Translations under genes and position numbers: made by a program
Notes under the pieces: generated by a model
Database searches by the model: none
Told to the model about the DNA's origin: nothing
The model's input: only the letters and a program-made list of their open reading frames with translations
IMG/VR virus record: IMGVR_UViG_3300044703_000081
Span: 1 to 61,899 of that record
Source of the DNA: a virus
Taxonomy: Duplodnaviria > Caudoviricetes
DNA: 61,899 nucleotides
Direction: 5' to 3' (one strand)
Shown: positions 1,222 through 61,863 of the stretch, piece after piece
How the letters are laid out: every line of letters starts with the position of its first letter
Position numbering within the stretch: position 1 is the first letter of the stretch

Positions 1222-1238
1222 TCCGGCGCGCAGACAAC

Positions 1239-1267
1239 AAAAAAAGCCCCCGGCCGAAGCCGGGGGC
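1239..1267 (-). terminator. Intrinsic terminator of the late/lysis transcript (also the sRNA 3' end)
   Basis: GCCCCCGGC-4nt-GCCGGGGGC followed by T7 on the minus strand. Confidence 0.85.
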
Positions 1268-1302
1268 AAAGTACAGGAGGAAACGCCCAAGGAGGGCACC
1301 AC
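1239..1302 (-). ncRNA. suhB/MmgR (alpha-r8)-like small RNA
   Basis: Minus strand TGCCCTCCTTGGGCGTTTCCTCCTGTACTTT followed by a GC hairpin and T7; resembles the family core CCCUCCUUGGGYGUUUCCUCC. Confidence 0.7.
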
Positions 1303-1356
1303 GCCACCATGGCAGCGGCGTGGTCTCGGACGGCGGCGCGCAGCCGCCGAAACTCA

Positions 1357-18503: not shown

Positions 18504-19735
18504 CAGCCAGCGTCCAGCACGACACCCATGCGATTGCCGGAGCCGCTGACATTGGCGACCACCCGGTCCCTGTCATCGGCGATATTGCGGAAGCGCACGA
18601 TGCCGGATTCGAAGCCACTGGCCTTGCCGGCGAGCACCGCCATCGTGATCCGCTCCTGGCCCACGCGGCTGAGACCGGGTTCGACTTCGGCGGCGCCGAC
18701 CGCCGCGGCGATCGCGACCGCGCTCGGAATGTCGCCGACCGCCGCCGGACTGGCCGGCAGGTTGTCGGTCTTGGCCTTGATGGCGGCGAACTGCGTATCG
18801 ACATTGGCCGCCGCCAGGCCGAGCGCGCCGCGCACACCGGCGGCGTCGAGATCGTTGAACCCGGTGATGCCGGTGCCTTTCGCCAGCGCAATGTTGGTGC
18901 CGGCCGTCAGCAGCCGGGTTGCGGACGCCCAGACATCGGCGGCGCTGTGGCTTGAGCGCGAGGACACGGGCGCATCGATACGGCCGAGCTCGGTCGTCAG
19001 CTCGGTCCGCACCTGGCTGCCGATGGCCGCGAGCGTAAGCCCGCTAAGCGACGGATTGACCGACGCGATCTTATTGGTGATGGCGGTCAGCACCTGCTCG
19101 GAATCGGTGTCGTCGATGATCTGCGCTTCGACCTCGTTGGCGATCGCCGTGCGCTCGCCGCCGGTCAAGGTCATGGCCGAGCCGACCGCCGCCGGCGATG
19201 CTGGCAGGTTGTCGGTCTTGGCCTTGATCGCGGCGAACTGCGTATCGGCATTGGCCGCCGCCAGGCCGAGCGCCCCGCGCACCCCGGCGGCGTCGAGATC
19301 GTTGAAGCCGGTGATGCCGGTGCCTTTCGCCAGCGCAATGTTCGTGCCGGCCGTCAGCAGGCGGGTTGCGACCCCCCAGACATCGGCGGCGCTGTGGCTC
19401 GAGCGCGACGTCACCGTGGCGTCGAGGTTGCTGGCGCCGCCGTTCGTCGCACTGACCACTTGGCTTATTTGCTCGCTGTCGTCGCAGGCGGCGGCGGTGC
19501 CGCGCACCACCAGGTCGCCGAGCGTGTTGGTATCGGTCACGTCGAGCGTGACCTTGTACCAGCCGTTCGACACTTCGGTCGCGTTGGTGGCGCCGGCGTT
19601 GGGATCGCCGAAGGCGCCGCCGGCCTTGCTGATCTTGATGGCCACCGTCTTGCCGGTCGCCGCCGACACGTGGTCCGACGACAGGAACAGCTTGAGCATG
19701 ACGACGAAGGAGGTGCTTTGGGCAAGGCGTCGCAT
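18503..19735 (-). CDS. Virion-associated protein with internal ~75-aa duplication
   Basis: Two copies of SRSSHSAADVW...IKAKTDNLPASPAAVG. Confidence 0.75.
   Translation of the reverse strand: MRRLAQSTSFVVMLKLFLSSDHVSAATGKTVAIKISKAGGAFGDPNAGATNATEVSNGWYKVTLDVTDTNTLGDLVVRGTAAACDDSEQISQVVSATNGGASNLDATVTSRSSHSAADVWGVATRLLTAGTNIALAKGTGITGFNDLDAAGVRGALGLAAANADTQFAAIKAKTDNLPASPAAVGSAMTLTGGERTAIANEVEAQIIDDTDSEQVLTAITNKIASVNPSLSGLTLAAIGSQVRTELTTELGRIDAPVSSRSSHSAADVWASATRLLTAGTNIALAKGTGITGFNDLDAAGVRGALGLAAANVDTQFAAIKAKTDNLPASPAAVGDIPSAVAIAAAVGAAEVEPGLSRVGQERITMAVLAGKASGFESGIVRFRNIADDRDRVVANVSGSGNRMGVVLDAG
18734..19408. repeat. Intragenic direct repeat of ~228 bp (18734-18961 and 19181-19408)
   Basis: Offset 447 nt; differences mostly synonymous. 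Confidence 0.85.
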
Positions 19736-28049: not shown

Positions 28050-29647
28050 GCGGCCTCTTGCGACTTGCGCTGCGGCTCATCCTTCGGATCGCCGCCGTCC
28101 TTGTTGCCGGCGCTCGGCGGCGGCTCCGGGGGATACGGATCCGGCAGCCCGAGCTTGAGCGCATATTTCCGCTCGCGGGCGCGCTGTTCCATGTTGTCGC
28201 GCCAGTTGATGCCGTAGCCGGCATTCATGGTGGCGAGATTGCCGATGCCGATCGCCTTTTTGGTCTCCTCGGCGCGGGCGGTCTTGAGATCGTCGGCCTG
28301 CGGCTTCGCCGGCCCTTGCCAGCTATGCGCGGTCGCGAACTCCTTCTGCACGAAAAACGCCTCGAGCCCGCCCGGAAATTCGATGCGGCCGGTGCCAACC
28401 TCCTCCTCGAGCCAGGTATCGAGGACCGCGTCGCCGAACGGCACCGGCACGTTGGCGCGGCGCTTTTCGGCGATGCCGTATTCCATCTCGATGCCCATGC
28501 GCGAGGCCGAGTAGGAGGAATTGCGGTAATCGCCGGTGGCGCTCTCGTAGGTGACGCCGGCGCAGCGCGCCAGCTCGCGATAGAGCCAGGCCATCAGCGG
28601 GTCGAAAGTCGCGGCCGGATGATTGTTAGTGTGAAACTGCAGCTCGTCGTTCGGAAACAGATGCGCGATGCGGCCATGTTGCGAAAAGTCGATCTTGGCG
28701 CCGTCGTACCAGTCGCCTTTGAGCTCGCCGAACGCTTCGAGCATATTGCCCTTGCCCTGGTCGCGCTCGGTCAGCATACCCTCGAACGCGGTCTGCCCGG
28801 TGAGGTTGCTCTTGATCGAGGCGGCGAAGATGGTCTGCAGCAGCGACGTCGTCACGGTGGCGTCGAACGACTGGTCGATCTGCCGCGTGGTCTTGAGCAC
28901 GGGCGCCAGCGAGGAAATACCGCGCGTGGCGCCGAGCGACGGCTCGAACACATGCACGATATTGCGGCGGCCGTCGGCGTCGGTCGCCTGGATTTCCACG
29001 TCGTCTTTGAAGCCGTAAGGATTGGTGCGCTCGATGAAGTAGGAGACCGGCGCGCTCCAGCCGTCGACCTTGACGCCCTGCACCACGCGCTCGTACGGCA
29101 AATTTTTCTGCGAGAGCCGCGTCGGCGGCAGCATCAGCACCTTGGTCATGCCAGGGACGCCCGGGCGCTTGATCATCGGCAGCGCCGCCAGCACCTCGCC
29201 GAACACCATCCAGGACGCGTAACCGAGCTGCTTCATCTGCCCGAGCGTCATGCGGCCGCCGGCATCGCAGGCGCGCGGGTTGTTAGCCCAGGAATTGAAG
29301 CGGTTCTCGACGTCTTCGCCCCATTCCGTGGCGCGCTCCTCGCTCCAGCCGAGCGCCTTGGCGTCGGGCGCCAGCGACAGCGTGAGCTTCGGCCCGACCA
29401 CGGACGCGACCGAGTGCTCGACAATGCCGGCGATCATGCCGGAATTCTGGATCTGCTCGCCCATCCGCGCGGCAGCCAGCGGCCAGGCGGCGCGCACGTC
29501 TTCCGAGTGCTCGCGCAGCACCGGCCGCCATCCGAACAGGAACGGCGACTTGTCGTTGCGAAAATAGGCCGCGCTCGGCGTCGGCCGACTCTCGAAGCGC
29601 GGCTCGACGCGGGTGCGCGGGACAAGAGGGACGCTAGTTGTTGCCAT
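28046..29647 (-). CDS. Portal protein (lambda family)
   Basis: HVFEP....RGIS.LAP; YE..TGDY...SYSASR. Confidence 0.92.
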   Translation of the reverse strand: MATTSVPLVPRTRVEPRFESRPTPSAAYFRNDKSPFLFGWRPVLREHSEDVRAAWPLAAARMGEQIQNSGMIAGIVEHSVASVVGPKLTLSLAPDAKALGWSEERATEWGEDVENRFNSWANNPRACDAGGRMTLGQMKQLGYASWMVFGEVLAALPMIKRPGVPGMTKVLMLPPTRLSQKNLPYERVVQGVKVDGWSAPVSYFIERTNPYGFKDDVEIQATDADGRRNIVHVFEPSLGATRGISSLAPVLKTTRQIDQSFDATVTTSLLQTIFAASIKSNLTGQTAFEGMLTERDQGKGNMLEAFGELKGDWYDGAKIDFSQHGRIAHLFPNDELQFHTNNHPAATFDPLMAWLYRELARCAGVTYESATGDYRNSSYSASRMGIEMEYGIAEKRRANVPVPFGDAVLDTWLEEEVGTGRIEFPGGLEAFFVQKEFATAHSWQGPAKPQADDLKTARAEETKKAIGIGNLATMNAGYGINWRDNMEQRARERKYALKLGLPDPYPPEPPPSAGNKDGGDPKDEPQRKSQEAA

Positions 29648-31469
29648 GCAGCCGCCCGACGATCTTTTTCAAGTTGCCCTTCGGCGGATCGAAGCCGGCG
29701 GTGAGCTCGGCCTCGCGGCGGTCATTGTCGAAGCGGCAGATGTGGCGCACGGCGCGGGCATAAACCGACGCGTCGAGCGCTTCCGCCTGCCGGCCGGGGA
29801 TGCGATGCCATTCCACCTTCGGGCGACCACGCAAGACCACGAGCACGCGCCGCTCTGAGGTGAATTGCACGAACCATTCGTTGTCGAGCGTCTCCGAGAA
29901 GCGGATCGCGCCCAATTGCCCACGCTCGATCGATAGAAGCGTGAGGATGTCCTGCTTTCCCTGGTCGGTGCCGACGATGTAGACGGTGGCATCGGCATAT
30001 TTCTTGCGCTTGGCCTTCGAGCGTTCGATCGTCGGCCGCGGACCGCCGGCGCCCTTGATGGCGACGATGCGGCGCGCCGCGCGCGGACCGCAGAAATCGT
30101 AGACCTGCTGGGTGCGGTTGCCGTCACCGCTGTCGACCGCGGCGGCCTCAATGCCGATGCGGTTGCCGAGAGGATGCTTCCACGTCGTCGACAGGAAGGC
30201 GTCGAGCTCGGCCCAGGTCGTCTCCAGGTTGGTGGGGCCGCGAATGATGTGGTGACCGAGCACGAAGTTCTCGGTGCGCGACCAGCCCCACAGCGTGCAT
30301 TCGAAACGATCCGGCTGCACGTCGCAACCGACGGTGATGTAGAGCACGTCGGGCGGGATGTCCTCGCGCCACCGCGACTTCTCTTCGTCCCAGGCAACGC
30401 CGAACTTTTCCGCTCGCGCCATCAGCGCGTGCTCGTCGACATGCTCGAGCGCCGACGACCACGGCAGCGCCAGCACGGTGTTGTAGAAGACCTTCAGATA
30501 GGCGGTGCCGGCGCGCTGCGCTTCCAGATACTCTTGCGCCAGGATGCCCCACGTTGCCTTCGGCTGCAGCGAGATCAGCGTCGGGAAGCGGAAGCCCGCG
30601 TGTCCTTTCACTTCCGGCTTGGTGATGCGGAACGATCCGGCCTCGATCATCGCCGGCTTGTGACGCTCCTCAATCGGCTCCTTGCAGTGCGGACAGCGGC
30701 AGACAGCCAGCTCCGGCTTGCCGTCCGGCCATTCGATGTGCTGCCACTGCGGCTCGAAGAACACGCCGCAGAGCGGGCACGGCCACTCGAAGACGCGCTG
30801 GTCGCTCTCGTTGTAGCGCCGCACGATGATCGAGACGACGTCCTCGGTCGGCGACGATCCGAACACGCCTTTGCGGTCGGCGTAGCTGTCGGTGCGCTTG
30901 ATGCCGAGCTTGATGGGGTCACCCTCGCGGGTGAGCTCCATGGCGTCGACCTCGTCGCCGTAGATCTTCTTGGCCGTGTGGCGGCGCAGGTTGCGCGGTG
31001 AGCGCGCGGCCAGCACTTTCAGCGATCCGCCGCTCGGGAGGTAGCGTTGCGTCAGCGTGTTGCGGGAATCGTAGCGGCCGCCTGGCATCAGCCCGCGCAG
31101 CGCCGGCACTTCGTCGAAGGCCGGATCGATTTCGTCGACCACGAGCCCGCGGGCGTCGTCGTCGGTCGGCATCAGCACGATGACCGCGCACGGGTCGTTC
31201 ACCATGTCGGCGCCGACCGCGGCGCAAACCATGGTGGTGAAGCCGATGCGGGTGCCCTTGACGACGTCAACGAATTCGATGGTCGGGTCGCCGATGGCGT
31301 CGAGGATCTCCCGCTGCGGCTTCCAGGGCCGATAGCGTCCCGGCTGCGCCGAAGAATCCGGCAGCCGCCATTCCTTTGCTGCCCAAGCCGAATACGACAG
31401 CACCGGCGGCGGCCGCAGTGCCTTAGCGACGTCGCGGAAGATCTCGCCCAGAATTAAATTGGCTGACAC
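29634..31469 (-). CDS. Terminase large subunit (lambda gpA family)
   Basis: KGTRIGFT, GDEVD, CPLC/CPHC, GCDVQ, AVDSG, EALD. Confidence 0.95.
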   Translation of the reverse strand: MSANLILGEIFRDVAKALRPPPVLSYSAWAAKEWRLPDSSAQPGRYRPWKPQREILDAIGDPTIEFVDVVKGTRIGFTTMVCAAVGADMVNDPCAVIVLMPTDDDARGLVVDEIDPAFDEVPALRGLMPGGRYDSRNTLTQRYLPSGGSLKVLAARSPRNLRRHTAKKIYGDEVDAMELTREGDPIKLGIKRTDSYADRKGVFGSSPTEDVVSIIVRRYNESDQRVFEWPCPLCGVFFEPQWQHIEWPDGKPELAVCRCPHCKEPIEERHKPAMIEAGSFRITKPEVKGHAGFRFPTLISLQPKATWGILAQEYLEAQRAGTAYLKVFYNTVLALPWSSALEHVDEHALMARAEKFGVAWDEEKSRWREDIPPDVLYITVGCDVQPDRFECTLWGWSRTENFVLGHHIIRGPTNLETTWAELDAFLSTTWKHPLGNRIGIEAAAVDSGDGNRTQQVYDFCGPRAARRIVAIKGAGGPRPTIERSKAKRKKYADATVYIVGTDQGKQDILTLLSIERGQLGAIRFSETLDNEWFVQFTSERRVLVVLRGRPKVEWHRIPGRQAEALDASVYARAVRHICRFDNDRREAELTAGFDPPKGNLKKIVGRLHGNN

Positions 31470-31699
31470 GGCGGTGTCAGTTTGGAGTGAATCCTGGTGC
31501 CGTCAGGAGCGTACCACTCGGTCCAGTGCTGCCACGCCTCGTGCCGCGTCACCTTCATCAGCTTGCAGTCCCAACACACGCGCTCGGTCGTGTGCTCATC
31601 GACCGGATGGCGATCCGACCACGCGTGTTGCTTGCGCTTCTCGATCGAGCTGGTTGCGGGAGCCGGATTTGAACCGGCGACCTCAAGGTTATGAGCCAT
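31454..31699 (-). CDS. Small Cys/His-containing hypothetical protein whose only suitable ATG lies inside the tRNA
   Basis: H.W...TERVCWDCKLMKVTRHE...HWTEW...TPPC looks like a real protein; start uncertain. Confidence 0.5.
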   Translation of the reverse strand: MAHNLEVAGSNPAPATSSIEKRKQHAWSDRHPVDEHTTERVCWDCKLMKVTRHEAWQHWTEWYAPDGTRIHSKLTPPCQPI

Positions 31700-31727
31700 G
31701 CGCGCTACCGGACTGCGCCATCCCGCG
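31651..31727 (-). tRNA. Phage tRNA-fMet-like (CAT), atypical
   Basis: CGCGGGA...CTCATAA...TTCAAAT...TCCCGCAACCA; C1:A72 mismatch; encoded CCA. Confidence 0.85.
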
Positions 31728-31734
31728 TGAACAC

Positions 31735-32183
31735 TCCGACGCCGCGACTGCAAAACTCTCGGAGGGGGCTGGGACCGAGAGCCGAGCAATCGCGACGCCG
31801 AACTGAATGGAAACCGCGCCGCGGGCATCGCGGCGCCGTCTCGATAGAGGCAAAGCCCTGGCCTCCATCAGCGCACCCCCGTCGGCAAGCCGATGGGTGC
31901 ATGGAAAAATCCGAGTGAGACTGGACCGCTCGCTTCCCACCCCGGCTTGGCTGTGGCGGCGTGGTACAATGGAGATTATTTCACTCTCCCACGCCGACGG
32001 CGCTAGCACAGCCTCACGGGCCAAAGCCTCGTCCGTCCGCTCACTCGAAACTTGCGCGGGTCGATGACCTTGAACGGATAAACGAACTGGGCTCGCGCCC
32101 AGCGGACAGCCCCGCAGGTCATCTTTCTGAACACCGAGCCCAACTAACGCGCGCTGCCCGATGAAAAGGCGGCGGCCCATGAA
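31735..32183 (-). ncRNA. Candidate large structured ncRNA
   Basis: At least 8 helices of 7-17 bp with G-U pairs on the minus strand, two crossing; no convincing ORF. Confidence 0.6.
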
Positions 32184-32885
32184 TTAAGATTCCGACAACT
32201 CCGACGGCAACACCGCGCCAGGCACCGCGCCGCCTTCGATCTCGGCGGCGGCATCCTCCAGCCGCTCGCGCACGATGGCGCCGATCGTCACCGTGTCGTG
32301 GGCGGTGAGATGCGGCACCGCGGCGCGGATTTTCGACGGCAGCGACAGGAACGACGTGCGCACGATGGTGGCAAACCGGGTCCAGCCCTCGCGCACGACC
32401 TCGCGCGGGATGTTCTTGCGATCGCGATCGGCCTTGCGGTCGATCAATTCCTGCTGCTTGAGCTGCTCGGTCTTGGCGCGCTCGTCGGCGAGCGAGAGCC
32501 CTTCCGACGTCCGGCCCGCCGCCATCCGGCGCAGGTGATCCATGTAGGCGCGCAGCGACGCCAGCACCGCGAAGCCTTTGCCGCCCTTGTCGTCGGCCCG
32601 CACTAGGATCCCGCGCTCGGCGAGATCGCGCACGAAGCGCGGCGTGATGTTGAACAGCGACGCCAGTTCGGCGCCGCTCGCCGTCTCCGGCAGCGATTCC
32701 ACCAGCCCGACGCGGGCGGCGGACGCGGGCGGCCCCGAAGGCACCGCCCGCTTCCCCTTCCGCTCGCCCACCGAGGGTTTATGAGCTTTTGGCGACTTCG
32801 CCGGTTGTCGTTTCGTTCGTTGGGGCTTTTTGGAGCGCGCTTTTTTTGCTGGCTTGCGCGACGTCCGTTTAGAACCCGAAAGCAT
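32184..32885 (-). CDS. Terminase small subunit (Nu1-like)
   Basis: wHTH ELASLFNITPRFVRDLAERG followed by coiled coil; basic N-terminal extension, start uncertain. Confidence 0.85.
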   Translation of the reverse strand: MLSGSKRTSRKPAKKARSKKPQRTKRQPAKSPKAHKPSVGERKGKRAVPSGPPASAARVGLVESLPETASGAELASLFNITPRFVRDLAERGILVRADDKGGKGFAVLASLRAYMDHLRRMAAGRTSEGLSLADERAKTEQLKQQELIDRKADRDRKNIPREVVREGWTRFATIVRTSFLSLPSKIRAAVPHLTAHDTVTIGAIVRERLEDAAAEIEGGAVPGAVLPSELSES

Positions 32886-44503: not shown

Positions 44504-45777
44504 GCGCCGTCCCCATCGGTTTGCCCGGAGAGTTGCGCCTCGGCCTTGTTCAGCGGCCATTCGCGCGGATAGCGCCGGCCCTTGGTGCGGCGCTGGGTCT
44601 CGAAGGTCTTTCCGCTGCCGTCGGTATGCGTGACTGTGCCGTCGAGCATGATCAGCTCGGGCTCCGGCCAGCGCCCGCACCAGTCGTGCACGCGCTTCGA
44701 CCAGGCGAACCAGTGCGGCGTCTCGGGCTCGGCGATCGGCCACGTCGCCGTCGGCACGTCGGCGTACGCCGCATAGCCGAGCCCGCACGGCGGGACCTCC
44801 GCCGGGAAGGTGCCGCCGCGGCCTTCCGGCAGAAACTGCACCACCGGCGTCGGCACGCCGACCATCGCGCAGTACACCCACCACGCTTTCCACGCCGCGC
44901 TGTCCTCGGCGGCGAACCGCTTCGGTTTCGGGATCAGCTTCTTGGCGTCGGGGAACTCCTCGAAGCCGCGCCGCTCGAGCCATTTGTGCGCGTCGACCGG
45001 CCGGCGCTTGAGCGCCTCCAGCCGCTTGCCGTAGTCGATGGCGGCGAAGCGCGCCCATTGCCGATCGGGCTCGGCCAGTGCAGCGAACACCTCGGCCGCG
45101 CGCTCGCGGTCCATCACCTCGTGACCGGGGAAGTTCGACCAGAGCGCGATGAACGTCTCGCTCCTGGATGCGTTCGCTTGCTCGCTTACTCGATCGCCAG
45201 AATCCTGTTCGCGCACACCCCCCAAGGGGGGTAGGGGGGATTCTTTCTTAGACTCTGTAAGAATCGGGTGACTATTAGTCGCCCCTCCCGCGTCAGCCAG
45301 TCGCCCCCCGGGTGACTGATAGTCGCCCCCGAGGGGTGACTGTGTGTCGCCCCCCGCCGCCGGCAGGGGGTGACTATTAGTCGCCCCCCCGGGCGACTGT
45401 GTGTCGCCCGTGACATTGCCGGCGCTTTGGTCGCCTTTGCCGTCCAGCCGCGCGCCCGCCGCCGCCGCGGTCGCGTCGCTGCCGTCCTCGGAAATTTCCA
45501 GGTAGATCGGGTCGACCGGCGCACATATGCGATAGGTGCATGGCTTCATGCCGCCGTTGACGTTGGCCACCTTGACCAACACGGCGGCGGTTTCCAGCGC
45601 GCGCAGCTCGCGCTGCACCTGCCGCCGCGAGATGCCGATCTTCTCCGCCAGCCGCGGCACCGAGATGGTGATCTCGTGGGTTTTCGAATCCGCCGCGAAC
45701 GCCATGTCCCAGGCGATCGCGCGCGACAGGTCGTGCACCTTGCTGCGGTAAACCCATTTGCAGGCCTCGAAGCTCAT
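44500..45777 (-). CDS. Replication initiator protein (N-terminal HTH)
   Basis: SVPRLAEKIGISRRQVQRELRALE; internal iterons. Confidence 0.85.
   Translation of the reverse strand: MSFEACKWVYRSKVHDLSRAIAWDMAFAADSKTHEITISVPRLAEKIGISRRQVQRELRALETAAVLVKVANVNGGMKPCTYRICAPVDPIYLEISEDGSDATAAAAGARLDGKGDQSAGNVTGDTQSPGGATNSHPLPAAGGDTQSPLGGDYQSPGGRLADAGGATNSHPILTESKKESPLPPLGGVREQDSGDRVSEQANASRSETFIALWSNFPGHEVMDRERAAEVFAALAEPDRQWARFAAIDYGKRLEALKRRPVDAHKWLERRGFEEFPDAKKLIPKPKRFAAEDSAAWKAWWVYCAMVGVPTPVVQFLPEGRGGTFPAEVPPCGLGYAAYADVPTATWPIAEPETPHWFAWSKRVHDWCGRWPEPELIMLDGTVTHTDGSGKTFETQRRTKGRRYPREWPLNKAEAQLSGQTDGDGA
45266..45410. repeat. Iteron array / phage replication origin
   Basis: Five full and one partial copy of the quasi-palindrome GGGYGACT-N4-GTCGCCC inside rep, beside an AT-rich patch. 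Confidence 0.85.
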
Positions 45778-59989: not shown

Positions 59990-60240
59990 GATTCCGTGAA
60001 CACCGGGGCAAACTTGCTGGCTCCATCACCACAACAGTTGAATTCCATACGCGTGAAGAACTAGCCCGATACCTTGTTACCAAATTCGATTGGCTGGAAC
60101 GCTCGAACGCTACGATTTCTGCATATCCATATAGCGGCGACGATGATCCGATTGGATGGCGCGACGTTCATATTGTCATCGCAGAAGGGCACGGTGTCTT
60201 GGGTTACATGGAGGGGCCGATGCCCCCGAAGTTTCCATAA
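59986..60240 (+). CDS. Low-GC hypothetical protein
   Basis: MRFREHRG.L..S..T...D..IGW....IV...GVLGY. Confidence 0.7.
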   Translation: MRFREHRGKLAGSITTTVEFHTREELARYLVTKFDWLERSNATISAYPYSGDDDPIGWRDVHIVIAEGHGVLGYMEGPMPPKFP

Positions 60241-61830
60241 ATGACCCGCTGCGCCATCTACGGCCGCTTCTCCGACGACAAGCAGAACGAGCGATCGGCG
60301 CGCGACCAGATCGCGCTGTGCCGCCACTATGCCGCCCGTCACGGCTGGCAGGTGATCGAGACCTTTGCCGACGAAGGCGTGTCGGGCGCCTCCATCCACG
60401 GCCGCCTCGAATACGAGCGCATGCTCGGCGCCGCCGTCGCCGGCCGCTTCGACGTCATCCTGGCGGAAGATCTCGATCGGCTCTCGCGCAACCAGGGCGA
60501 CATCGCCAAGCTCTACGAGCAATTGAGCTACGCCGACGTCGAGGTGCACACGCTCGCCGACGGCCTGGTGAACGAAATGCACATCGGCATGAAGGGCACG
60601 ATGAGCGCGCTCTTTCTCAAGGGCCTCCGGCTCAAGACCTGGCGCGGCAATTCGGCCAAGGTGCGCGACGGCCTCGCCGGCGGCGGGCTGACCTACGGCT
60701 ATGCGCCCGGCGCGGCCAAGGGCGAGCGCATCATCGTCGAGCACCAGGCCGCCGTCGTGCTGCGCATCTTCGAGGAATACGACGCCGGCCGCTCGCCGCG
60801 CGCGATCGCCGCCGGGCTCAACGCCGACGGCATCAAGCCGCCGCGCGGCTGTGACTGGATCGCCTCCGCGATCAACGGCAACCCCAAGCGCGGCTCCGGC
60901 ATCATCCACAACACGCTCTATGACGGCCGCCTGATCTGGAACCGGGTCGCCATGCGCAAGGACCCGCGCACCGGCAAGCGGGTGTCCCGCCCCAATCCGG
61001 CAAGCGACTGGATCGAGGTCGCCGTGCCGGCGCTGCGCATCGTGCCGGCGGATCTGTTCGCGCGCGTGCAGGCGAAGAACGCCGCCCGCGCCAAGCTGCG
61101 CCCCGAGCGATCGCGCCGCCCGCGCCATCTGCTGGCCGGGCTGCTGCGCTGCGGCTGCTGCGGCGCCGCGATGGCCATCAACAACGGCGGCCACGACAGC
61201 CGCCGCATCTATTGCGGGCGTCGCAAGGAAGGCGGCCGCTGCCCCAACGGCCATACCTACAAGCTCGCGCCGATCGAGCAGCGGGTGATCGTGGCGCTCA
61301 AGGCGCAGCTCACCGACCCGCGCGCGATCGAGCGCGCGCTCACCACCTACCGGGCCGAGCGCAAGCGCCTGGCGCAGGAATCCGAGGGCAAGCGCGCGAC
61401 CCTCGAGCGCAGCCTCGCGCAGGCCAAGCGCGCCATCGACCGCATCGTCGACGCCATCGCCGACGGCTCGCTGTCGAGCCCCGAGGCGGCAGTCAGGCTG
61501 CCGGACTTGCGGCGCCAGCGCGAGGGCGCCGAGAGCGAGCTCGCCCGCCTGACACCGCCGTCCAAAGTGGTGGCACTGCACCCGACCGCGGTCAGCCGCT
61601 ACCTCGCGGCCGTCGAGACGCTGTCGGTCACGCTGGCCGCACGGATCCTCGATACAGACGGGGAAGCCGCCGCCGCCTTGCGCGAGCTGGTGGAGAGCGT
61701 GGTCGTTCACCCGGGAGAGGGCGCGCCGGCGGTCAATGTCACCGGCCGACTGGCGATGCTCACCGGCGCAAGGCTGTTTCCAACGTTGGTAGCGGGGGCC
61801 GGATTTGAACCGGCGACCTCCGGATTATGA
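60241..61830 (+). CDS. Large serine recombinase (integrase)
   Basis: YGRFS catalytic Ser, DRLSR, YGY, LLRCGCCG zinc ribbon, coiled coil. Confidence 0.95.
   Translation: MTRCAIYGRFSDDKQNERSARDQIALCRHYAARHGWQVIETFADEGVSGASIHGRLEYERMLGAAVAGRFDVILAEDLDRLSRNQGDIAKLYEQLSYADVEVHTLADGLVNEMHIGMKGTMSALFLKGLRLKTWRGNSAKVRDGLAGGGLTYGYAPGAAKGERIIVEHQAAVVLRIFEEYDAGRSPRAIAAGLNADGIKPPRGCDWIASAINGNPKRGSGIIHNTLYDGRLIWNRVAMRKDPRTGKRVSRPNPASDWIEVAVPALRIVPADLFARVQAKNAARAKLRPERSRRPRHLLAGLLRCGCCGAAMAINNGGHDSRRIYCGRRKEGGRCPNGHTYKLAPIEQRVIVALKAQLTDPRAIERALTTYRAERKRLAQESEGKRATLERSLAQAKRAIDRIVDAIADGSLSSPEAAVRLPDLRRQREGAESELARLTPPSKVVALHPTAVSRYLAAVETLSVTLAARILDTDGEAAAALRELVESVVVHPGEGAPAVNVTGRLAMLTGARLFPTLVAGAGFEPATSGL
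61786..61799. repeat. Right att core TTGGTAGCGGGGGC
   Basis: Identical to 698-711. Confidence 0.85.
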
Positions 61831-61863
61831 TTCCGCTGCTCTAACCAACTGAGCTACCCCGCC
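61787..61863 (-). tRNA. Host tRNA-Met (CAT, elongator type), integration target
   Basis: GGCGGGG TA GCTC...GAGC A GCGGA ATCATAA TCCGG AGGTC GCCGG TTCAAAT CCGGC CCCCGCT ACCA. Confidence 0.93.

Follow-up and report, generated by a model that had tools for sequence, protein, structure and literature searches.

A small structured RNA between the terminase genes of a virus genome belongs to a widespread, unannotated family of phage and prophage RNAs

The terS and terL genes of the virus genome in IMG/VR record IMGVR_UViG_3300044703_000081 (61,899 nucleotides, analyzed over its full 61.9-kb length, about 67% G+C, and called the window here) are separated by a gap that contains a structured RNA of 140 nt at positions 32049-31910 on the minus strand. 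Homology searches, a covariance model and compensatory changes show that this RNA is a member of a widespread and unannotated family of structured RNAs carried by phages and prophages. An original prediction, made from the sequence of the window, had placed a single ornate RNA of about 450 nt with several pseudoknots in the same gap. That observation is partly confirmed and its interpretation partly supported, but the real unit is smaller and different. With a probability of roughly 0.55, the family encodes a small stable RNA that would be released by tRNA-processing enzymes and act in trans through an invariant core.

The family has a simple layout: a closing helix (P1), a near-invariant 5' strand (GGACRAGGCUNNGGCCCG), a variable arm, a near-invariant 3' strand (CCGGGRUGGGWAGCGNGYGGU) and the returning strand of P1. 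P1 comprises some 8-16 pairs and is often interrupted by a small internal loop, which in the window's type consists of a 5' C and a 3' AGY; inside P1 lie a 3-nt GGA bulge and then two further pairs, C:G and R:Y. The sequence of P1 is free while its pairing is kept, with 69 distinct 8-mers among 76 copies and inner pairs that vary among CG, AU and GC. Cognate flanks pair with a mean energy of -16.1 kcal/mol, compared with -8.0 (standard deviation 3.5) for non-cognate flanks, of which 2.2% reach the cognate median. In the main alignment of 79 sequences, evaluated against 500 shuffles, paired cells amount to 97.5% versus 88.8% in the shuffles, and the covariation score is 0.242 versus 0.088, a value that none of the 500 shuffles attained. 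Sliding the partner strand by 1-3 columns lowers pairing to 17-48%.

The clearest single pair is R5:Y18' (R5 being the fifth position of the 5' strand and Y18' the eighteenth of the 3' strand), which is GC in 36 sequences, AU in 35, GU in 1 and otherwise in 2, with a mutual information of 0.73; beyond it, mutual information revealed no complementary pair. A further 68 copies were found by way of the 5' strand alone and are thus unbiased for the 3' strand. In these the same pair is AU in 45 and GC in 22 with one exception, and 14 of the 21 positions of the 3' strand are at least 97% identical. Among 35 large forms, helix P4 of the variable arm also covaries (column pair 41:148 is GC in 16, CG in 8, AU in 6 and UG in 3), and a GUGGGAG...ACCAC sub-domain recurs. 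The gap in the window has no signal in third-position GC content (GC3) and the arm lengths of the family do not come in steps of three, arguing that the RNA is not coding.

The window copy is a large form that covariance model R1 (see below) matches with 63.9 bits (E 1.2e-11) over positions 31905-32052 of the minus strand; this is the sole match in the window, it spans all 85 model positions, and all the pairs of the model are present (P1, the GGA bulge with the C:G and R:Y pairs, the invariant strands and the arm). The 5' strand of P1 (32035-32049) pairs through 32049-32040 with 31919-31910 and through 32038-32035 with 31926-31923, leaving C32039 in the internal loop; the returning strand, with its AGU internal loop, occupies 31910-31924, as shown by a helix check and by the pairing of flanks across the family. 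The first of these segments had been predicted as helix d, and it turns out to be the closing helix of the whole family, with nine Watson-Crick pairs and one G-U pair here and covariation in homologues. The near-invariant 5' strand GGACGAGGCUUUGGCCCG lies at 32017-32034, with G32030 paired with C31928, and the near-invariant 3' strand CCGGGGUGGGAAGCGAGCGGU, identified by its conservation across the family, lies at 31925-31945. Between them, the 71-nt variable arm (31946-32016) contains P4 (32013-32007/31955-31949) and P5 (31996-31989/31964-31957), and its apical hairpin bears a GUGAAAUAA loop. A nested arm of GGCUGUG, CGGCGUGG and GGAGA had been noticed at first sight; it corresponds to P4-P6 of this variable arm and likewise covaries in homologues.

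Homologues were sought by BLAST in 401 genomes from the order of L002, a genome with a related terL, where collinear matches reached the middle of the gap only and in three Labrys genomes. The nhmmer alignments contained two conserved blocks flanking a variable stretch. At E ≤0.01, 49 of the 401 genomes matched, of which only the three Labrys genomes have confirmed copies; G332 and G313 contain weak look-alikes that R1 does not recover, and the others are short GC-rich chance matches. Exact-pattern scans with the conserved blocks used a 20-mer, a 3' pattern and a 5' pattern. All 14 matches of the 20-mer in viral contigs are true copies, and its 12 loci in species-representative genomes comprise five confirmed by the model, one (L096) judged by eye to be divergent, and six false ones. 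The 3' pattern matched 79 stretches in viral contigs and at least 120 in genomes, with 118 new loci among the matches listed, 18 of which have an R1 hit. The 5' pattern matched at least 119 loci in metagenome contigs, including 68 distinct copies with the 3' strand, 41 without it and 5 at contig ends. False matches in GC-rich genomes accordingly number 6/12 for the 20-mer, 100/118 for the 3' pattern and 41/119 for the 5' pattern, among the matches listed.

R1, built from 18 minimal forms, produced 79 hits when run on 90 sources and 62 on the first 100 of the at least 119 metagenome loci. Phage contigs, prophages and metagenomes together supplied at least 137 distinct copies, which are 82-200 nt long and have arms of 5-126 nt. 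Two copies can occur on one contig, as in L145 (5090-5199 and 6501-6633) and in the contig shared by L134 and L150. In L326, a shortened variant at 751-828 (31 bits) keeps P1 and the 5' strand and has lost most of UGGGWAGCG; it may be a decayed copy.

The original prediction could not assign its element to a known family, and rightly so. At the gathering score, Rfam 15, which covers GOLLD and ROOL as well as the known self-cleaving ribozymes and riboswitches, finds only two tRNAs and one mmgR hit elsewhere in the window. At E up to 10, cmscan of 31400-32400 finds nothing overlapping 31910-32049, and the minimal forms in L112 and L118 are likewise without an Rfam match at that threshold. A tRNA or tmRNA architecture is also absent, in that ARAGORN and the Rfam tRNA models match only 31651-31727 and nothing inside the RNA unit. 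The RNA bears no annotation in the deposited phage records that carry copies, and the motif description was not found in the full-text literature, a search that stopped short of the supplementary models and tables of PMC4201824, which might list overlapping phage RNAs.

About 35 near-invariant positions are shared by phages of Alphaproteobacteria, Actinomycetota, Chloroflexota, Planctomycetota, Patescibacteria and Cyanobacteria. Model-confirmed copies are found in the Alphaproteobacteria (three Labrys species, Methylobacterium platani, Pseudorhodoplanes, two metagenome-assembled genomes (MAGs) of Pseudolabrys, Aureimonas flava, Microvirga lupini and Agaricicola taiwanensis), the Actinomycetota (two Gaiellaceae MAGs and three other MAGs), the Chloroflexota (Limnocylindrales, Chloroflexi and Dehalococcoidia MAGs), the Planctomycetota (one Phycisphaerae MAG) and the Patescibacteria (one Saccharibacteria MAG). 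Four blastn queries of a collection of 50,697 deposited phage records recovered the RNA from five Streptomyces phages (Braelyn, Mandalore, Anedea, Navo and Riptide; six records) and from Microcystis phage Mwe-JY13. The Braelyn copy lies unannotated in a tRNA region (R1 69.2 bits), and the Mwe-JY13 copy, also unannotated, follows terL. The RNA is short and is abundant in soil and freshwater viromes. Orphan structured RNAs conserved to such a degree are rare, and for comparable ones a role as a ribozyme, a ligand sensor or a component of an RNA-protein machine has repeatedly come to light. Because this RNA is present in cultured phages (Braelyn and its relatives, and Mwe-JY13) and in prophages of cultured bacteria (Labrys, M. 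platani, M. lupini, A. flava and A. taiwanensis), its function is directly testable. For annotation, non-coding gaps in phage tRNA arrays and ahead of terminase genes can now be checked for it.

A tRNA gene lies within 600 nt of 39 of the 137 copies, and every such tRNA is on the strand of the RNA. Fifteen loci have at least two tRNAs, and the place of the RNA in these arrays varies from first through inner to last. When a tRNA adjoins it directly, the distance between the invariant strands and that tRNA is only 8-20 nt, so that P1 just fills the space between. The commonest neighbor is tRNA-Met(CAU), with 12 cases among the 137 copies, and most of these tRNAs, including that of the window, have a weak or mismatched first acceptor pair and an AACCA end, features shared with initiator tRNAs.

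The reading preferred here, for which the probability was given above, is that the element is the gene for a small stable RNA and not a regulator of terL. The RNA would be transcribed along with phage tRNAs or within the late/packaging transcript, and would be excised by the enzymes that trim tRNAs: a tRNA downstream would have its 5' end cut by RNase P, and one upstream would be trimmed at its 3' end. Excision would leave P1 as the terminal helix, and the released RNA would then act in trans through the invariant core. Since this core is conserved over phages of at least five bacterial phyla, it should contact an equally conserved component of the host's RNA or translation machinery. A more specific proposal, which can be put forward only as speculation, is that the core is a free-standing binding module and that the family represents a new class of trans-acting phage RNA, one that disarms or captures a universal host component. 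In that case the RNA would be expressed alongside phage tRNAs, often beside an initiator-type tRNA-Met, and the variable arm would be a dispensable scaffold; candidate targets are a tRNA-targeting defence nuclease, the RNA-decay machinery and a small signalling molecule, for which the RNA would serve as a 'sponge'.

Several observations weigh against the trans-acting RNA. A tRNA is near only the 39 copies mentioned, and the others have no evident processing route. The sequencing runs listed as holding the sequence are two DNA runs from soil metagenomes and none of RNA, so that a discrete RNA species is inferred and not seen. A stand-alone small RNA should be followed directly by an intrinsic terminator; the window's terminator-like site is 74 nt downstream, and across the family such sites show no enrichment, occurring within 150 nt downstream in 14/133 cases and upstream in 15/125. 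P1 pairs equally well on either strand, and its G-U pairs show no difference between sense and antisense, so that the strand is assigned from the shared orientation of the RNA with tRNAs and genes. The fold of the core is also ambiguous: a three-way junction with a short GGC/GCC hairpin and a short P3 (model A) and a rod with long-range GCU:AGC and CCCG:CGGG pairs (model B) fit it equally, with 97.5-97.7% paired cells. Variant L247 favours model A, and A-to-G changes at position 12' are compatible with model B. Finally, the distribution of terminase genes fits another explanation as well. In a survey of loci flanked by 3 kb or more, the nearest same-strand open reading frame (ORF) that reaches 330 aa and lies no further than 4 kb away was taken on each side. 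The downstream ORF is a large terminase in 13/37 (from four Pfam families) and a portal in 2 more, and the upstream ORF is a terminase in 1/25.

That other explanation, the main rival and an improbable one, is a cis-acting element of the late or packaging transcript, either a put-like signal for processive antitermination, with which RNA polymerase would pass hairpins and tRNA genes on its way to terL and the structural genes, or a leader by which the expression of terminase is adjusted. The downstream bias of terminase genes is what one would expect of it, the RNA is always co-oriented with downstream genes, a terminator-like hairpin lies between the RNA and the tRNA and terL in the window, and a core that is invariant across phyla would suit RNA polymerase binding. 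However, the RNA occurs first, in the middle or last in tRNA arrays, where tRNA-processing cleavage would cut the tether to the polymerase. Its distance to the start codon is not fixed, it comes after terL in Mwe-JY13, and the terminator-like sites are not enriched downstream. The put RNA of phage HK022, an RNA of processive antitermination, works strictly in cis, through RNA-dependent read-through of downstream terminators, and is not known to occur among tRNAs. The family resembles it, by description only, as a sense-strand structured RNA that stands ahead of late operons and has a core that could bind a universal machine, and differs from it in having copies within tRNA arrays.

Rather less probable is a new kind of Y RNA, a ligand of phage or host Ro60 (Rsr, with the TROVE domain). 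Bacterial and phage Y RNAs (YrlA and YrlB), as described in PMC4201824 and PMC12135203, are RNAs of 80-150 nt with a terminal stem formed from both ends. The family likewise has a terminal stem with internal loops and a conserved purine-rich motif just inside the 5' strand, and it occurs in tRNA-rich phages. One copy has a TROVE gene as its neighbor: it belongs to the phage contig G402/L132 and follows that gene on the same strand at a distance of about 430 nt. The TROVE domain is found in 6/74 RNA-bearing IMG/VR records and in Braelyn, compared with 0/48 records without the RNA; as a background, tblastn with the L132 TROVE protein matched 88/50,697 deposited phage records. The 5'-strand motif GAC(G/A)AGG resembles the GNCGAAN0-1G Ro-binding motif that PMC4201824 places near the 5' end of YrlA, with 5-6 of 7 positions matching, but its position 5 is base-paired.

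Other comparisons argue against this idea. According to PMC4201824, YrlA genes lie within about 4 kb of the Ro60/TROVE gene on the same strand, and YrlA has conserved T-arm-like and D-arm-like stem-loops that mimic tRNA. Judged by that description, a TROVE gene lies within 4 kb in only 1/74 RNA-bearing IMG/VR records and nowhere in the window, the family has no T- or D-arm-like hairpins (its only short hairpin has a 4-nt UNNG loop), and its motif is GAC(G/A)AGG and not GNCGAA. No TROVE match was found in the window, in 68/74 RNA-bearing phage records or in 19/20 further RNA-bearing bacterial genomes, and records with both the RNA and TROVE show them at distances of 8-115 kb, G402 being the exception. 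R1 scores no more than 9 bits beside the TROVE genes of four phages. The TROVE-positive records are all tRNA-rich phages, a confounder, and the weak TROVE matches in the three Labrys genomes come from but one genus, against a background of 28/401 genomes. A Ro60/YrlA partnership is thus not supported, with TROVE mostly absent or distant and the arm mimics missing. As a separate observation, gaps of 0.7-1.2 kb without annotated genes lie upstream of the TROVE genes of Xanthomonas phage MET23-P3, Caulobacter phage CcrColossus and Rhizobium phage RHph_TM30. These phage TROVE-linked gaps (L440 3304-4006, L441 3223-3982 and L442 2702-3889) give no R1 match and presumably hold Y RNAs.

The single RNA of about 450 nt that was first proposed, running from 32183 to 31735 with a 3' end made by RNase P and likened to GOLLD and ROOL, is now very unlikely. 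In its favour, the five helices given by coordinates are all present with 0 mismatches. The whole gap also folds better than dinucleotide-shuffled controls on the minus strand (z -4.85, with 0/100 shuffles as good) and less so on the plus strand (z -1.64); together with the covarying homologues, this bears out a structured RNA on the minus strand. The comparison with shuffles holds up for some parts of the gap and fails for others. With 200 shuffles for each part, the z values for the minus and the plus strand are -7.65 and -0.98 at 31840-31728, and -2.77 and -3.50 at 32052-31905. The 5' 131 nt (32183-32053), where helices b and c were to form an H-type pseudoknot, are at chance level (z -0.83 with 43/200 shuffles as good on the minus strand, -0.85 on the plus strand), and the pseudoknot finds no support. 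The fold excess stems from the middle of the gap and from the hairpin region beside the tRNA, not from the 5' third. Helix a (32182-32174/32022-32014) would occupy bases of the conserved core, with which it competes, and has no counterpart in any homologue. The conserved unit spans 140 nt in the window, its copies elsewhere measure 82-200 nt, and neither flank is found beside other family copies. The searches turned up no close relative of the phage to serve as a check on the long-range helices, and the best terL relatives lack the insert. Release by RNase P suits the family as a whole, given the co-orientation with tRNAs, but in the window cleavage at the tRNA would not set the 3' end of the RNA, since 182 nt, including the terminator-like hairpin, lie between them.

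About equally little recommends a self-cleaving ribozyme or some other processing element by which tRNAs and mRNAs would be separated in phage transcripts. The junction, purine-rich and near-invariant over about 35 nt, is of the sort usually seen in cores that catalyze reactions or bind ligands, and the RNA is located in phages among tRNAs; however, none of the ribozyme families of Rfam gives a match at E up to 10, the copies revealed no conserved position that could be a cleavage site, and tRNA arrays have no need of such an element. The least credible explanation is that the element is not an RNA at all but a DNA-level site (pac/cos or attachment) or ORF 31689-32180, as its closeness to terminase genes, the equal pairing of P1 on both strands and the ATG-started frame of 163 codons might suggest, for compensatory changes keep the pairing while the sequence drifts freely, copies lie inside tRNA arrays far from terminase genes, and the ORF has a GC3 of 0.64 (0.83-0.87 in flanking genes), traverses the tRNA and has no Pfam or PHROG match.

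Other known phage RNAs offer further points of comparison. The tRNA cluster of phage T4 encodes stable non-tRNA RNAs (species 1 and 2, or bands C and D) that are co-transcribed with the tRNAs, are released by tRNA enzymes and have no known function. The family is like them, by description only, in being made up of non-tRNA RNAs among phage tRNA genes, and differs in that no T4-like phage is among the matches in the deposited phage collection. GOLLD and ROOL are also carried by phages and prophages, are often near tRNAs and are of unknown function, but they are several hundred nucleotides long and have Rfam models. The phi29 pRNA, which binds the portal and the packaging ATPase and is not known outside phi29-like phages, shares with the family a terminal helix, a junction, variable arms and a link to packaging genes. 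Unlike it, the family has many copies in tRNA arrays at a distance from any terminase gene, and again there is no Rfam match.

In the window, the gap begins directly after terS (32184-32885, minus strand; small terminase subunit, phrog_57, E 3.4e-14, GC3 0.83), the upstream neighbor. The gap ends at terL (29634-31469, minus strand), the downstream neighbor, which encodes a large terminase of the gpA type (PF05876 and PF20454, phrog_15) with GpA ATPase and nuclease domains. The original prediction had noted that the two genes are separated by a non-coding stretch with an adjoining tRNA, and this is borne out. The 456 nt from terS to the tRNA have the low GC3 already mentioned, and the only long frame runs through the tRNA without a Pfam or PHROG match, arguing that the gap is non-coding. 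The tRNA is a phage tRNA-Met at 31651-31727 on the minus strand (found by ARAGORN; cmscan 62.1 bits). A weak or mismatched first acceptor pair and three G-C pairs in the anticodon stem are hallmarks of initiator tRNAs. This tRNA looks like an initiator in having C1 opposite A72 as a non-standard first acceptor pair and a 3' end of AACCA, but it departs from that pattern in C11:G24 and in a U-U mismatch in the anticodon stem that leaves only two of the three G-C pairs. Between the tRNA and terL, a small coding-like frame (31454-31650, minus strand, third-position GC 0.79-0.82) overlaps the start of terL. It has no Pfam or PHROG match and no relative in the loci compared. The earliest usual start codon of this frame is a GTG, 41 codons ahead of its stop.

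In the terL relatives L002 and L010 (terL 61% identical), a neck protein gene is followed by terS and then by terL; terS abuts terL or overlaps it, and no tRNA is present. A tRNA is absent from 12 of the 13 terL-relative loci scanned, the remaining one having a tRNA-Cys, and the gap sequence has no similarity among the 56 loci compared. Because terS and terL are contiguous in L002 and L010 and the gap has no counterpart, the roughly 715 bp at 31470-32183 are an insertion in the window phage, and the gap is shown to be built of separate pieces. R1 gives no match in the terL relatives L002, L010, L011 and L014; the RNA, the initiator-like tRNA-Met and the small ORF thus appear to have come as one inserted module, which these four relatives lack and which would have entered between terS and terL. 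Further searches were made for close relatives of the gap. A search with terS found no relative in viral contigs, and the best relatives by terL are the 61% identical ones without the insert. A 31-mer specific to the tRNA had no match in viral contigs, and blastn of the whole gap against deposited phage records matched the tRNA alone.

The pieces on either side of the RNA have no counterpart beside other family copies in about 3 Mb of loci, and so are specific to the window phage. On the 5' side, the spacer after terS (32053-32183, minus strand), which is outside the conserved RNA and folds at the chance level given above, contains a terminator-like hairpin at 32103-32086 (minus strand) detected by the search for terminator-like sites. 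On the 3' side come two small hairpins and then the terminator-like hairpin at 31816-31836 (minus strand), which is GC-rich with a weak U tract and begins 74 nt after P1. Short look-alikes of its palindrome occur on both strands of many Hyphomicrobiales genomes. Last is a long hairpin at 31735-31802 (minus strand) with an outer stem of 17 bp (helix f; 13 Watson-Crick and 4 G-U pairs) and an inner stem of 9 bp, which ends 7 nt ahead of the tRNA and accounts for the strand-specific z of -7.65. Such an extended duplex may be where an enzyme such as RNase III processes the transcript, or it may stabilize the tRNA precursor.

A few features elsewhere in the window deserve mention. A second tRNA-Met, of the elongator type, lies at the record end (61787-61863, minus strand), and its 3' 32 nt differ from the internal tRNA at 2 positions; it is probably a host tRNA serving as the attachment site. 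The adjoining ORF of 549 codons (60061-61710) has no Pfam match. Near the other end, the Rfam mmgR/suhB small RNA match at 1231-1304 (minus strand) scores 47 bits against a gathering score of 41, which suggests either an alphaproteobacterial host flank or a phage-borne copy. In the structural gene region, a 245-nt direct repeat (family D1; 18734-18978 and 19181-19425) is 91% identical between its two copies, whose starts are 447 nt apart. Finally, four copies of a partly palindromic 23-nt repeat, GGGTGACTnnTAGTCGCCCC (family D13), are clustered within 125 nt at 45266-45390 and look like repressor operator sites.

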